Shown one piece after another: positions 17,231 through 57,012 of a DNA stretch of 64,000 nucleotides. The DNA is taken from positions 14,198,001 to 14,262,000 of the forward strand of contig NC_090346.1 in NCBI RefSeq assembly GCF_035084215.1. The letters are read 5' to 3'. This DNA is from Heptranchias perlo (lineage: Eukaryota). How positions within the stretch are numbered: the first letter of the stretch is position 1; every line of letters starts with the position of its first letter. Both the position numbers and the translations under genes were made by a program. Below the pieces are notes generated by a model. The model was not told where the DNA came from. It searched no databases and saw only the letters and a program-made list of their open reading frames with translations.

Positions 17231-17434
17231 AAATAAAAACAGAAAATGCTGGAAAAGCTCAGCAAGTCAGGCAGTATCTGTGGAGAAAGAAACAGAGTTA
17301 ACATTCTGACGAAAGGTCTTCGACCTGAAACATTAACTCTGTTCCTTTCTCCACAGATGCTGCCTCACTTGCTGAGCTTTTCCAAAATTTCTGTTTTTAT
17401 TTCAGATTTCCAGCATCCACAGTATTTTGCTTTT
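17231..17434 (+). mobile_element. Penelope-like pLTR fold-back insertion (subfamily C) with hammerhead motif
   Basis: Arms ~17231-17301 / ~17333-17402, ~32 nt unpaired tail, TSD gctatagaaatg at 17218-17229 and 17435-17446. Confidence 0.8.
17304..17337 (+). ncRNA. Minimal type I hammerhead ribozyme motif (stem III palindrome mutated)
   Basis: CTGACGA-A-AGGTC/TTC/GACCT-GAAA-CA-TT. Confidence 0.6.
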
Positions 17435-17557
17435 GCTATAGAAATGTAAGTTGTTGAGTCCAGCACAATCAATCAGCTTTTTTTTGTTTTGCATTTGTTG
17501 TTTTGAATTTGAAAAACAAAACTTGAGTCTCCACCTCCTGTTTACTGCCTCCCGCAG

Positions 17558-19515: not shown

Positions 19516-19752
19516 TGTGGAGATGCCGGTGATGGACTGGGGTTGACAATTGTAAACAATTTTACAACACCAAGTTATAGTCCAGCAATTTTATTTTAAA
19601 TTCACAAGCTTTCGGAGATTTTCTCCTTCCTCAGGCAAATGTTTCAAGGAGCTCTTGAAACATTTGCCTGAGGAAGGAGAAAATCTCCGAAAGCTTGTGA
19701 ATTTAAAATAAAATTGCTGGACTATAACTTGGTGTTGTAAAATTGTTTACAA
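19516..19752 (-). mobile_element. Penelope-like pLTR fold-back insertion (subfamily A): perfect 99-bp-arm palindrome plus tail
   Basis: Arms 19550-19648 / 19654-19752; tail 19516-19549; TSD atataatttgag at 19504-19515 and 19753-19764. Confidence 0.88.
19662..19702 (+). ncRNA. Minimal type I hammerhead motif (mirror copy on - strand at ~19600-19640)
   Basis: ATTTGC-CTGAGGA-A-GGAGA/AAA/TCTCC-GAAA-GC-TT-GTGAAT; stem I ATTTGC pairs with GTGAAT. Confidence 0.72.
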
Positions 19753-25717: not shown

Positions 25718-26396
25718 AAAGTTTCAGCCCCTCCGTGTTCACATTTTACAAGCTTCAGCCGTACATTTGAAAGCAAGACTTGCATTATGACCGCAGGGCA
25801 TCCCAAAGCACTTCACAGCCAATGAAATACTTTTGAAGTGTAGTCACTACTGTAATGTAGGAAATTTGGTTACATTCCAATGTACAGAACACTTGGATAA
25901 ACAAATAAAAAGAATCCTGGACAGAGAACTACTTGCATATGAAGAGGTAACTGGAGATTTTAACCCTTAAACCCCTCCTTCACAGACATGGTTTGAGGTA
26001 AGATTCAAACACTCTTCAGAAAATACTAAAAAGTATGATGGTAAATGATAGTGCCAGTAGCAATAATTACCAGGTTTAAAAATAAAGACAGCCCACGTGT
26101 TCCCTGCCTCCCTTGAATTCAGCGACAAGGACACTAGCCTCCTAACCCATGGCAAACTTAGGGCATTGGTCAACTTTTCCCTTCCAAATCGGGGGAGATT
26201 TGGAGGTCACAAGTTTGACCCGATTCAGAACCAGTTCAAAGAAAAAATAATTAATTAATTACAGTAGTGACTACACTTCAAAAGTATTTAATTGGCTGTG
26301 AAGTGCTTTGGGATGCCCTGCGGTCATAATGCAAGTCTTGCTTTCAAATGTACGGCTGAAGCTTGTAAAATGTGAACACGGAGGGGCTAAAACTTT
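25718..26396. repeat. 139-bp inverted repeat with ~400 bp spacer
   Basis: 25718-25856 is the reverse complement of 26258-26396 with 2 mismatches. Confidence 0.92.
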
Positions 26397-47390: not shown

Positions 47391-47722
47391 CCCGGCCAGA
47401 GTCAACACCTTCACGACAGGAGGGAGGAAAAGCGGGAGAAAAAAGTGCAGCTGTGACATTAGCAGCCCTCATTGTTAATCTGAGGCACACCACACAATAG
47501 TGAAACCAGCTTTACAAAACAATTCCCATTACTTATACAGACATAAGGAACACTTAAATCCCACCAGCCATTTCCTTTTCATACATGTGCTAAACAAATG
47601 TTTCCTTACCAACCACACTGCAAGAATGAATATTGTCTAAACAATCCATCAATTTCTTTTTAAAAGCCACGAGTCACAACCATAAATATACAAAAAAGGT
47701 TTTTTTTGGCTGCAACAAAACG

Positions 47723-48144
47723 TTCGGGCAGTGCCCACAGCACCACTTCGGGCAGTGCCCACAGCACCACTTCGGGCAGTGCCCACAGCACCACTTCGGG
47801 CAGTGCCCACAGCACCACTTCGGGCAGTGCCCACAGCACCACTTCGGGCAGTGCCCACAGCACCACTTCGGGCAGTGCCCACAGCACCACTTCGGGCAGT
47901 GCCCACAGCACCACTTCGGGCAGTGCCCACAGCACCACTTCGGGCAGTGCCCACAGCACCACTTCGGGCAGTGCCCACAGCACCACTTCGGGCAGTGCCC
48001 ACAGCACCACTTCGGGCAGTGCCCACAGCACCACTTCGGGCAGTGCCCACAGCACCACTTCGGGCAGTGCCCACAGCACCACTTCGGGCAGTGCCCACAG
48101 CACCACTTCGGGCAGTGCCCACAGCACCACTTCGGGCAGTGCCC
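47723..48144. repeat. Perfect 24-bp minisatellite, 17.6 copies
   Basis: ttcgggcagtgcccacagcaccac repeated without visible variants. Confidence 0.97.
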
Positions 48145-48715
48145 TAATCTGCAGGAGACTGCCATGAAACAAAACTGCATTCCCGAAGTGTGATGGAAGT
48201 CAATGGCTTTACAGATAATAAATTGAATATATAGACAGATCATATAACAGCACTTAGACAACACATTTAGCATAGCAAAACATCCCATAGCATGTGGGGG
48301 GGGGGGGAAATGGAAGAAGAAAAAAAGAGGTAAGACATCAAGCACAATGCTTGTACCCAACTTCTAAGTATCTCTGTCATGCCTACAATTATCTGACCTC
48401 ACCTTCTTTTAAAAAGGGAAAAAAATAACATCTTTTCAGGTAAGGAAAGAATATAACAATAAGACACGAGATGTAATGACAATTTTAAGAGTGACAGCAA
48501 ATGTCAGCTTGGCTCAGTGGGTAGCACCCTCACCTCTGAGTCAGGCGGCCGTGGGTTCAAACCCCACTCCAGGACTTGAGCACAGAAATCTAGGCAGACA
48601 CTCCCGAGGGAGTGCTGCACTGTCAGAGATGCTGTCTTTTGGATGAGAAGTTAAACCAAGGCCCTGTCTGCCCTCTCAGGTGGATGTAAAAGATCCCACT
48701 GCATGATTTGAAGAG

Positions 48716-49631
48716 TAAGGAATCTTACAACACCAGGTTATAGTCCAACAAATTTATTTTAAAATCACAAGCTTTCGGAGGTTATCCCCTTCGTCAGATG
48801 AATGAGTGAAAAGGTTCTCAAATCGCACATCTTATACTATGCTGGGACAGCATCACACCAATCAAAAGGTGTCGTTGTTATTCAAACAGGCCAGTCACGG
48901 AGAACAGCACGTCCCAGTACACTGGATATACATTGTGTCAATTACACAGGCAGGCAGAAAGAAACCCAAAATGGCAGAGAGAGAGAATATTAAAAAACAT
49001 AATTTTTTTCCCCCTTTTTGCTGGTGGGGTTACGTGTAGCGTGACATGAACCCAAGATCCCGGTTGAGGCCGTCCTCATGGGTGCGGAACTTGGCTATCA
49101 ACTTCTGCTCGACGATTTTGCGTTGTCGTGTCTCTCTTCGGGTAAGCGTTCTCCAAGGCGGCCTTCGAGACACACGACAACGCAAAATCGTCGAGCAGAA
49201 GTTGATAGCCAAGTTCCGCACCCATGAGGACGGCCTCAACCGGGATCTTGGGTTCATGTCACGCTACACGTAACCCCACCAGCAAAAAGGGGGAAAAAAA
49301 TTATGTTTTTTAATATTCTCTCTCTCTCTCTCTGCCATTTTGGGTTTCTTTCTGCCTGCCTGTGTAATTGACACAATGTATATCCAGTGTACTGGGACGT
49401 GCTGTTCTCCGTGACTGGCCTGTTTGAATAACAACGACACCTTTTGATTGGTGTGATGCTGTCCCAGCATAGTATAAGATATGCGATTTGAGAACCTTTT
49501 CACTCATTCATCTGACGAAGGGGATAACCTCCGAAAGCTTGTGATTTTAAAATAAATTTGTTGGACTATAACCTGGTGTTGTAAGATTCCTTACATTTGT
49601 CCACCCCAGTCCATCACCGGCATCTCCACAT
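48716..49631 (+). mobile_element. Penelope-like element 3' fragment (GIY-YIG C-terminus plus pLTR) with inverted self-copy (subfamily B), inserted in a Deu-SINE
   Basis: Arms ~48715-49131 / ~49172-49594; LRVSVLQGGLRDTRQRKIVEQKLIAKFRTHEDGLNRDLGFM; tail 49595-49631; TSD catgatttgaagag at 48702-48715 and 49632-49645. Confidence 0.9.
49508..49544 (+). ncRNA. Minimal type I hammerhead motif (mirror copy on - strand at 48765-48801)
   Basis: TCAT-CTGACGA-A-GGGG/ATAAC/CTCC-GAAA-GC-TT-GTGA. Confidence 0.75.
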
Positions 49632-50176
49632 CATGATTTGAAGAGGAGCAGGGAATTCTTCCAGTGTCTTTATCCCTCAAACAACATCTCTAAATCAGAT
49701 TATCTGGTCACTTCATATCTCATCACTGGATGTAGGACCTTGCAGTGTGCAAATTGGCTGCTGCGTTTGACAGTTCAAAAAAGTTAATTAATTTGTCATG
49801 AGGAGGTTTGGGACATGAAAGACACGAAGCTTTCTTTCATTGCAACATGCAATGAACAGGAAATTTCAGCACTCAAGAGCGCCTCTTTAAAGCAATTTAA
49901 GGGAGTAAAATGCCATTAACTTTTTCTCCCTGTTCCAATAATATGATGAAATTAAAAGGAGACGTGTCCAGGCCAGCTTGAGAAAAAAGTCCTTTTAAGA
50001 AATTGCACATTGTTTAACACTTGTGAATGGGTCTATAAAAATAAGCTTGCACTACTGTATAAAAGCAGAACTGTGTGCACAAAATTGTGCAATAAGTCGT
50101 GCACAACTTAGTGTAAAAATGGCATAAATCCAAACACTCCACACAACTGCAAGTGGAGAAAATATATATAGAGATT

Positions 50177-50386
50177 CAAAAGCAAAATACTGCGGATGCT
50201 GGAAATCAGAAATAAAAACAGAAAATGCAGGAGAAGCTCAGCAAGTCAGGCAGCATCTGTGGAGAAGGAATTGACATCTTTTAACATCTTCCAGTTCTGA
50301 CGAAAGTTCTTCGACCTGAAACGTTAACTCTGTTTCTTTCTCCACAGATGCTGCCTGACTTGCTGAGCTTCTCCAGCATTTTCTGC
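50177..50386. mobile_element. Penelope-like pLTR fold-back insertion (subfamily C)
   Basis: Tail on the left (reverse complement of the 17403-17434 tail), inverted arms, TSD atatat(a/g)gagatt at 50164-50176 and 50387-50399. Confidence 0.8.
50293..50329 (+). ncRNA. Minimal type I hammerhead motif
   Basis: AGTT-CTGACGA-A-AGTTC/TTC/GACCT-GAAA-CG-TT-AACT; stem I AGTT/AACT; one stem II mismatch. Confidence 0.68.
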
Positions 50387-51106
50387 ATATATGGAGATTG
50401 ATTACTATGTTTAGTCAACCAGTCCATTATCGTTGTATTACGCGACTACCAGGATAGTAGAAAGCGAACTACATGAACCTTGGGTTTTTTTGGTCCAGTA
50501 ATTCCTATGTTCCAATAATAGGTCTATAAACCGTGTTAAATGGTGTATAGGACACGTTATATAAGATGTAAATATAAAATGCACAAAGCGGACAGCGCAA
50601 AGCCCTCGGGAACAAGTTTCCTTTGGACAATTTTCTCACCTCGGGGTTTCGTGTAACTTTGTTGCCTTTTCAACACCGCTACTTTCTGGAGCCGCACCGA
50701 CTGCCACGTTAATGGGAACTCCGGTCAATGGGGGAGTGATGGCGGGGATTACCCCCGGTTAGTAGGGGACTCCCAGCTCACTGGGGGGGGGGGGGAGGGA
50801 GAGTGCAGAGACCGTGGGTGGGGAGAGGAGGTGGGGGGACCCTTGGGTAGAAGTTGGGTCTCCAGCTCGAAGCCCGGCTCCTCACAGCCCCCTCCCTCCC
50901 TCCCTTCCCCTCCTCTCCTCTCCTCTCTCTCGGGTATTTTCATTCATCCCACAGCTCGGTGTAAAAGTGACTCCCCCCCCCCACCCCCGGCGGGAATGAG
51001 AGATTTTTTTCAGCACAAAACCCTCAACTTTAGTTCTTAAAAGTTAGGGAGGAAAATAAAAACTTTTTTTCTCCATGAAGAACAAACTTTTAATTTTCCC
51101 TCTTAC

Positions 51107-51129: not shown

Positions 51130-52309
51130 TCCGAATCATGTGAGCTCCGGAGCTGCCATGTGATTTCCTCAATAATAAACAGAAGGAAAATAAATAAATA
51201 TCTTTTTGAAATTCTTCCCCCTGTCCCCGGTTGAAACAACAAACTTATTTTTGAGATTTTGTAAAGTTTTTCTTCGATGAGCTTTTCATTATTTTAAAGA
51301 CCCTGTGAAATATTTTCTTTTCTCTCTCTGCCGACGTTTTCACCTCCTCGATTTTTTTTGCCCGCAAAGTATCGGCCCCACGGCGCATGCGCCCCCTGCA
51401 GGTATCGCCTCCGATACCGATCAGCGAGATGGCGAGGAATCGATTGGCCCGCGCGGACCGACTGAAACCCGCGCGGAGTTGACACCGAACATGATCTTCG
51501 TGGGCGCGCCATGCATTTAACGTGACTTTATTGGGATTCTTTTGTTTTATAATTGTCCGGTTTGCAGTAATCGTTTCTTACTTTTATTAAATATCAACAG
51601 TTGATTTATAGTTCGCAGTTACTATTACATTTCTTATTAAATATTAAACAATTTATTTTACAATTGTAAACAATTTTACAACACCAAGTTATAGTCCAGC
51701 AATTTATTTTACAGTTAGTGACAGTTACTACTGCGTTTCAACTTTCTGCACCGAGTATTGAAGTAATCGTTTCAAAGTTTCCAAACTCAACAGGGTGTTT
51801 AATTTGTTGAATGCTACTTTTTTTTTTGAAAAAAAATAACTAAGATCCAAAACAGTCAGGAACAGTCCCAGAGGCCGCATCCTGTTAAAAAGGCGCACTG
51901 TCTGTCACTGAGGGGCAAGAACAAAGCTGTGTTCCCGGCTGCACCATCTGCCAGATGTGAGACTGTTGTTAGGGATTGTCACGTTTGCCTTTCTATTAAT
52001 TTTCACTCTGTCTCGTTCCCTCACTTTTACACATTTCTTAGTCAATTCTGCACTTGTTGCTCAACCACACTTCTCTATTTTATTCTCTTTAATGCACTAA
52101 TTCTCACTCATTAGCTCACACTCACTTAATAGCTCACACTCACTCACGCATTGCCTCACTTGCTCAGTCACACACACTCACTCCGGGTACGCTGTCTGTC
52201 GGCCAGCGGTGTTGTGACTCCCTCCCGTTGCTATAGCCCCGCCGTCAAACACCGGGAGCCGCAGCCAGGCCGCTGGACCCCGGGCCCGGGTAACCCTCGA
52301 GGTGCAGAG
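51130..52309. promoter_or_regulatory. Divergent promoter region SNX8(-)/IQCE(+)
   Basis: Two CpG clusters; NRF1 palindrome GCGCATGCGC 51383-51392 overlapping CTCF-like CCTGCAGGGGGCGC (-); reverse CCAAT ~51443; X-box-like GTTGCTATAGCCCC 52227-52240. Confidence 0.7.
51663..51699 (-). mobile_element. 37-bp tail-less Penelope pLTR fragment (subfamily A)
   Basis: Identical to the arm ends at ~19550 and ~56852; flanked by direct repeat caatttattttaca (51649-51662, 51700-51713). Confidence 0.8.
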
Positions 52310-56330: not shown

Positions 56331-56851
56331 GCACCTTCTGAAAGATATTGTCAGTTGCCCAAAGGGAAACAATTGTTATCATTGCAGAAAACATTTTTCA
56401 CTGGTATAGGACATAAATATCGTGTTAGTCAAAAAATGCAGAAAAAAGTATGAAATACAGGATTCTCAAGATGGTGTGCTTGCGGCATGTGGTAAGATAG
56501 GGCCCAGGTGGCCAGGGTGCAATCTAATGACATTGCGTGGGATCTCCTCACTCTCCCCGCCCCAGGCCCCAGCATCAACACCTGTGCCTTAACATGACCC
56601 ACAGCAGCAGGTCAGTACTGAAAGTAAGTGGGGTGGCTTGGCTGGTTTGAGCAGTGCTAATTGCGAACATAACCGGGGTAACTACCAGAGAGTCACCCTA
56701 AAGTTTCAGAAGCTTCGAAGGGTACAAATCAGAATTTTAAAAAAGAAAGTCTTGCATTTATATAGCACCTTTCACAACCTCAGGACATTCCAAAGCGCTT
56801 TACAGCCAATGAAGTACTTTTTGAAGTGTAGTCACTGTTGTGATGTAGAAA

Positions 56852-57012
56852 ATTGTAAACAATTTTACAACACCAAGTTATAGTCCAGCAATTTTATTTT
56901 ATTTTACAAAATAAAATTTTATTTTACAAAAATAAAATTGCTGGACTATAACTTGGTGTTGTAAAATTGTTTACAATTGTCAACCCCAGTCCATCACCGG
57001 CATCTCCACATC
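56852..57012 (+). mobile_element. Short Penelope pLTR fold-back insertion (subfamily A, no ribozyme) inside a Deu-SINE
   Basis: ~50-bp arms, AT-rich reiterated centre, tail gtcaaccccagtccatcaccggcatctccacatc; TSD gtgatgtagaaa at 56840-56851 and 57013-57024. Confidence 0.87.

Follow-up and report, generated by a model that had tools for sequence, protein, structure and literature searches.

The insertion unit of endonuclease-bearing (EN+) Penelope-like elements (PLEs) consists of an inverted, 5'-truncated copy, a tail on one side only and a target-site duplication (TSD), as set out in the available sections of two earlier accounts (PMC8557442, PMC3846280), which describe no RNA fold for the tail; the former attributes the tail to endonuclease resolution. 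The tail is a signature of PLEs and has been known since 2024 to lie between two starts of reverse transcription. In the Poseidon element of Anolis carolinensis (PAc), the reverse transcriptase (RT) starts at two sites that bound the tail and lie in an 'AC-rich stem loop', and the published account has both starts internal, predicts a dimer and describes nicks in each of the two strands (PMC11167929); the portion of its text accessible to us names neither a pseudoknot nor a conserved helix, and Fig. S1B and S2C of that paper may already show the PAc helix described below. The 3' UTR of vertebrate A-clade R2 elements forms an RT-bound pseudoknot-hinge-stem loop, which has been validated with compensatory mutants and whose structure has been solved (PMC11601368, available in part). 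Human telomerase RNA, according to the sections available, has pseudoknot loops of 8/0/8 and a triple helix (PMC4993307, PMC2873773). In the literature covered, mostly that open without subscription, we found no description of a conserved helix or pseudoknot in the PLE tail: the accessible portions of bioRxiv 10.64898/2026.07.22.740005, PMC4209133, PMC2377424 and PMC12602865 describe no tail structure, the available part of the killifish Neptune supplement (PMC12602865) contains no identifiable pLTR, that of the hammerhead supplement (PMC4209133) shows no tail sequences, and a structure search returned no solved PLE structure.

Here, we analysed a 64,000-nt stretch of Heptranchias perlo DNA (the window) that carries an insertion at 48716-49631, the architecture of which is identical to the canonical EN+ unit as described in the sections cited above. 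An inverted arm is joined head to head with a direct arm between two 14-bp TSDs (48702-48715 and 49632-49645, plus strand), and the TSD-resolved ends of this locus (L001) lie at 49631 for the long arm and 49593 for the short arm. The inverted, tail-less arm (48716-49136, minus strand) is 98% identical to 49167-49594, and its outer end is equivalent to 49593-49594, the 3' foot of a hairpin. The direct arm carries the C-terminal end of a Neptune-type GIY-YIG ORF in a 5'-truncated copy (49130-49273, plus strand; 96% to the family B protein by tblastn), a minimal hammerhead core and the tail motifs; a pLTR with a hammerhead, an inverted 5'-truncated copy, a one-sided tail of 30-40 nt and a TSD were all found. 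The hammerhead core (CTGACGA, stem II, GAAA; 49512-49536, plus strand) is predicted from a motif scan and has no Rfam match. This minimal type has been described for PLEs (PMC4209133, in the parts available) and here stands directly upstream of the structured stretch. As in PAc, so far as the printed account of that element extends, the hammerhead is followed by a structured stretch and then by a 30-40 nt tail between two starts; unlike PAc, the element belongs to the Neptune rather than the Poseidon clade, and the region, which is coding in PAc, is untranslated. The host site falls inside an abundant repeat about 400 bp long, probably a SINE (48502-48714 and 49669-49768).

Longer copies elsewhere (L002, L006) encode a single ORF with an RT (RYIDD) and a C-terminal endonuclease (YIGET..GLN), joined by the linker PCHGNLCKTC (PCxxxxCKTC), an extra Zn-finger-like CxxC motif. 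According to the sections of PMC8557442 available to us, a CxxC linker motif is common to Neptune and Nematis. A protein search with the family ORF returned at least 120 homologues, the nearest named ones from sharks; in Pfam, RVT_1 was matched below threshold (26.7 bits against a cut-off of 29.6), and no GIY-YIG match was obtained. The element is an EN+ PLE, probably of the Neptune clade, Neptune being separated from Nematis by the motif and the clade distribution. In the 3.2-Gb genome (G000) there are about 99,000 arms (98,909 counted with one degenerate hairpin pattern), and the window itself contains further copies: two-armed stubs of subfamily A at 56845-57012 (motif at 56942-57000) and 19516-19752 (tail on the minus strand), a tail-less single stub of the same subfamily at 51657-51711 (minus strand), and two stubs of a group labelled C. 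The motif letters reported by the sequence-only reading, made from the DNA without database searches, are all present as given in B, A and C.

That reading had taken the hairpin TGTAAG-attc-CTTACA (49580-49595, plus strand) and an H-type pseudoknot to mark the inversion point of the element. The adjoining tail (49596-49633, plus strand, about 36-38 nt) lies between two inferred RT starts. Targeted searches, supplemented by 10-kb stretches sampled at 74 evenly spaced positions, gave 296 unique arms, a sample biased towards the queried variants; the tail was present in 162 and absent in 134, and among the tail-less arms, 111 of which could be typed, 83 end at 49594-49599 by match alone. TSDs measured 11-14 bp in 56 of 70 two-armed pairings. 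Of the 68 pairings with a TSD of at least 8 bp, a few of which may be mispaired and in which maximising the TSD trims the ends inward, 48 have their short-arm end at 49593-49597 (mode 49595-49596) and 53 have their long-arm end at 49630-49633. The inverted arms therefore do end at the hairpin foot, as had been proposed, but the head-to-head junction lies elsewhere, near 49136, and the foot is better named a second priming site. This position agrees with the second RT start published for anole Poseidon. In many long arms the match to the template continues for 1-3 nt within the TSD (49632-49635): T at 49634, the T of the ORF ATG, is found in 125 of the 162 tail-bearing arms, the TSD-resolved end being mostly 49633 or earlier, which hints at short primer-template pairing or at a matching target preference.

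The best-supported structural part of this region is a predicted long-range helix between the pLTR and the tail, hereafter P1, whose 5' strand (a, TGGACT, 49562-49567, plus strand) lies downstream of the hammerhead and whose 3' strand (a', AGTCCA, 49608-49613, plus strand) lies within the tail. Relative to the first base of a', the apparent arm ends of A and B fall at -11 to -9 and +25 to +28. Outside the sharks' own families, a metagenome scan gave three loci from 83 pattern matches, of which two were usable, L165 (61% protein identity) and L166, both single contigs with presumptive 3' ends; a third locus (L167) is not a PLE. Counted from the hammerhead GAAA, the 5' strand starts at 25 nt in B, 25 in C, 22 in L165 and 25 in L166; in PAc a possible 7-bp CAUGGCC/GGCCAUG helix, read by eye from the printed template, starts at 24 nt, which places P1 22-25 nt past the hammerhead in five elements. 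The ends of turtle Neptune elements probably carry a comparable long-range stem. P1 is present in the predicted folds of B, C, L165 and L166 and in the consensus of an alignment of nine sequences, comprising seven close kin from genome G000 and the two metagenome contigs. In this alignment, five of the six P1 pairs are invariant and there is no two-sided change; a three-pair extension of P1, which occupies the first two bases of the candidate knot strand b', shows one two-sided and two one-sided changes, and the consensus fold consists of P1, its extension and four hairpin pairs.

The group that the sequence-only reading had treated as subfamily C is instead a separate family, with 35% identity in the endonuclease region as judged from two decayed frames. 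Its stubs in the window lie at 17231-17435, with the P1 strands GATGCTG (17356) and CAGCATC (17411), and at 50177-50385 (two-armed, tail on the minus strand, minus-arm motif at 50195-50257). The tail motif CAGCATC is indeed complementary to the upstream GATGCTG, but in the predicted fold this pairing is nested. Among 63 family C arms, whose ends are read from alignments, 32 end before a', 24 at +19 to +27 and 7 between; 16 of the 32 short-type ends lie at -9/-8 from the first base of a', and 21 of the 24 long-type ends at +23 to +27. The two arm ends lie on either side of P1 at similar distances in A/B and in C, and because the C hairpin stops 16 nt before the short-arm end, P1, not the hairpin, is the common reference. 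The tail is about 35 nt long in PLEs generally, and we estimate the chance of a like a' placement in two families at about 1 in 5. When windows chosen with both families known were applied to 20,000 shuffles of a family C copy, a 6-bp helix in the P1 windows occurred in 0.47% and such a helix with a 4-bp second stem in 0.08%. A hand register of B against C gives four two-sided changes in six P1 pairs and a shared AC-YTG-S-TG at strand b; MAFFT did not recover this register. In Rfam, family C fold-back stubs (50213-50392) appear as sub-threshold microRNA precursors and are likely to be a source of false microRNA annotation.

Taken together, the fixed arm ends, their agreement with the RT starts of PAc and the recurrence of P1 in distant families make it likely that the tail region contains a structured RT-recognition element, as the sequence-only reading had suggested. 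We consider it probable, at roughly 60%, that the predicted P1 positions the element protein and thereby fixes two places, one on either side of the P1 3' strand, at which reverse transcription begins. From the observed identity of the element, its fixed ends, TSDs and complementarity, and from the two RT starts taken from print, we infer the following course. The protein, possibly as a dimer, would bind P1 and the adjoining invariant AC-YUG-S-UG segment; priming by one nicked target strand, about 25 nt downstream of the first base of a', would yield the long arm with its tail, and priming by the other, about 10 nt upstream of that base, the short inverted arm. Within the P1 loop, the hairpin would act as an accessory element, over which the b/b' knot stem may close, and the RT would unwind the fold while copying it. 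If this is true, P1 would define a minimal template signal for the PLE class of RT, as the R2 3' pseudoknot did for R2, and its retention at the same distances in distant families offers a testable hypothesis for the placement of RT starts.

One alternative, which we regard as unlikely, is that the protein reads the primary sequence, as RNA or, through its endonuclease, as DNA, and gauges the starts from a sequence motif, the pairings arising incidentally from a repeated YTGG/CCR motif. Across the A/B clade and its two metagenome relatives, the P1 core does not vary, nor, in sharks, do the unpaired loop and the terminal 12 nt, so invariance does not show pairing. Contigs from other organisms contain no variant reaching 3% in a, L1, b, a' or b'. 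Each helix alone is within chance expectation: among 4,000 dinucleotide shuffles, the frequencies for B and A are 38% and 46% for a 6-bp pLTR-tail helix, 8% and 11% for the hairpin, and 11% and 22% for the a-b-a'-b' pattern; all three features coincide in 0.15% and 0.4%, under thresholds chosen post hoc. Bearing on P1 itself, folding z-scores are -0.89 for B (-0.44 for its antisense strand), -2.49 for A, -0.24 for D, -2.47 for L165 and -1.36 for L166, and those of B and D are weak. In subfamilies A and D, a shifted nested fold without P1, in which CCGGCA pairs with 49559-49564, is equal or better. The eight Rfam matches in 48500-50500 are all sub-threshold, with none over 49560-49632. In line with sequence readout, the available text of PMC11167929 cites the finding that cleavage of plasmid DNA by the Drosophila Penelope endonuclease depends on the tail. 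Against it, P1 keeps its distances in family C and PAc although its letters differ. The behaviour of the hairpin also argues against it: the change from G-C in B to A-U in A passed through propagated G.U subfamilies, with 3,709 G.U against 191 A-C intermediates among the 98,909 arms, the latter being at the level of private mutations, so that wobble-type variants favour the sense RNA strand. A coding constraint was rejected, with a reading frame that differs between the sharks and L165 and an in-frame stop in A and B; the a-to-a' distance also differs by 2 nt between the sharks and L165, and coding is therefore not the cause of the conservation.

Placement of the starts by P1 also has to be weighed against the view, which we find quite improbable, that the hairpin sets the second start and that a two-stem, telomerase-like pseudoknot is the recognized fold. 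For the hairpin, this view has in its favour that the short arms of A and B end at its foot and that L165 has a different stem sequence with the same loop; the hairpin shows three two-sided changes in the nine-sequence alignment, and its outer four pairs are kept in sharks, persisting via wobble changes. The covariation claimed earlier amounts to one two-sided pair between A and B, a single event. The inner pairs vary among active subfamilies: at 49584-49591, subfamily D carries C-T (most of 2,262 matches), whereas the dominant type in runs X12 and X15, from other organisms, and four reads of run X21 carry T-T; 49585-49590 is also broken in one minor subfamily. As a general marker of the arm end the hairpin does not hold, since arms with mismatched hairpins end alike (10 of 13 at 49594-49597) and in family C the arm ends lie about 16 nt beyond the hairpin; L166 has no hairpin at all.

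For the knot, the strand order a-b-a'-b' is present as pairing potential, with both stems 6 bp in A, B and D; strand b (CTGGTG, 49573-49578, plus strand) begins with C or T according to subfamily, and b' (CACCGG, 49615-49620, plus strand) is separated from a' by the single T at 49614. By automatic alignment, the candidate stem shows four one-sided and no two-sided changes in the nine sequences, and the C-G versus U-G variation previously taken as covariation is one-sided only; because L165 keeps ACCGG one base further on, after a 1-nt insertion, the count understates that sequence. The hand register gives knot cores of YUGG/CCGG in A/B and YUGC/GCAG in C, with a 1-nt link, and the 4-bp core in C carries one two-sided change by this register, each pair being kept in 15-20 of 23 copies; yet given P1, a 4-bp second stem arises in 16-23% of family C shuffles in the same chosen windows, and in the predicted fold of C the b strand favours a local hairpin. 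L166 has three contiguous knot pairs only, and PAc, read by eye, forms a second helix that is nested, with no knot in the A/B/C geometry. Under two rough penalty schemes of our own, the knot in B (-15.2 and -18.9 kcal/mol) is about as stable as the nested fold (-15.4 kcal/mol), whereas in A the knot (-10.9 and -14.9 kcal/mol) is less stable than the nested fold (-19.3 kcal/mol). In a classical H-type pseudoknot, the stems stack and loop 3 is long enough to cross stem 1. The loops here are 5/29/1, with AUAAC as loop 1, 29 nt including the hairpin as loop 2 and a single U as loop 3, which does not agree with the H-type assignment of the sequence-only reading, the usual loop 2 being 0-1 nt in the sections of PMC2873773 available.

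The repeated YUGG/CCR motif of the region leads to three competing folds, namely nested P1, the shifted nested form and the knot. The outer pair of the P1 extension is broken by A or C at 49559 in 16 of the 162 tail-bearing arms, in all of which 49577 and 49616 are unchanged, which leans slightly towards the knot in sharks. Participation of the b/b' stem in the working fold is possible, with the odds somewhat against it, as one among several near-equal folds. An HDV-like ribozyme, which has the same strand order, was rejected, as the P1.1, P4 and catalytic core of such ribozymes are absent. A third view, that the fold governs translation of the downstream ORF in tandem transcripts and not reverse transcription, agrees with family B tandem copies, in which the tail leads directly into the ORF ATG (201 genome matches, e.g., L019:1634) and the long-arm start coincides with the start codon, and with a hammerhead just upstream that could leave uncapped RNA, but is very unlikely, as it leaves the fixed arm ends unexplained and, in the published parts consulted, the PAc ORF starts inside the hammerhead and the pLTR and tail of rotifer Pen2a are coding, so that the tail is not generally a leader.

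Returning to P1 as the positioning element, we tentatively extend it to the doubtful but specific proposal that EN+ PLEs share a position-conserved RNA module after the hammerhead, which in Neptune would be an unusual pseudoknot serving as a ruler for two RT active sites. As part of this proposal, a continuous tail strand of 11-14 nt might pair with two pLTR segments over about one helical turn, and active sites situated about 10 nt before and 25 nt after the start of the module might explain both the tail and the inverted arm.

A triple helix requires a U-rich strand and an A-rich loop, which form U-A.U triples. Loops 1 and 3 here provide no such combination, and P1 would not show kinship with the telomerase pseudoknot. 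Telomerase RNA is alike in that an a-b-a'-b' order is possible and the RTs are relatives; it differs in having a separate, short and reiterated template with a boundary element, whereas the PLE fold is itself template and is copied once per insertion. The tie to telomerase drawn by the sequence-only reading is not upheld: a triple helix would lack its U-rich loop, and the review holds that a pseudoknot was absent from ancestral telomerase RNA (PMC4993307, sections available). As a working analogue, the vertebrate R2 3' UTR is the best, closer than telomerase. In both, a compact 3' RNA fold of divergent sequence would be involved, which in R2 is bound at the start of target-primed reverse transcription, as far as the available part of that work extends; R2 belongs to an unrelated non-LTR clade and uses one start at the RNA 3' end, compared with two internal starts in PLEs.

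Further searches extended the comparison to other sequence collections. Contigs of prokaryote genomes gave four loci from 19 matches, none with a pLTR; viral contigs gave no relatives in two protein scans and no hammerhead matches, and 20 motif matches among them were set aside as chance, lacking both hammerhead and tail. G001 and G002 yielded chance-level matches only, whereas L388 is a possible PLE contig without a definable 3' end. Within the shark's own genome, a distant protein query and the L165 DNA returned only A/B copies, a second hammerhead pattern led to old family C copies, and a third to single mutants of A/B. A bacterial symbiont assembly (L228, NZ_MPRK01000347.1) contains animal-type PLE fragments with 62% identity to family B, which are likely to be host contamination.

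A third endonuclease-bearing PLE family, with open frames of 744 aa and about 30% identical to B across the endonuclease region, was encountered at loci L198-L227. Near chromosome ends of this genome (e.g., C1:0.92-1.02 Mb and 198.07-198.27 Mb; C4:141.42-141.84 Mb; C5:0.14-0.22 Mb), its copies are arranged head to tail in arrays of about 7.7-8.7 kb. The 3' UTR consists of degenerate CCCTAA repeats, and hammerheads repeated in tandem at a 292-bp period lie nearby. A terminal location has been described for endonuclease-lacking PLEs. Within the window, a tandem array with a 24-bp period, open in all six frames, lies at 47660-48170, and an inverted repeat of 139 bp with 98.6% identity, its halves about 400 bp apart, lies at 25718-26396. 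At C3:86.08-86.61 Mb, identical tail variants are clustered at a spacing of about 24-30 kb, which suggests a segmental tandem array.
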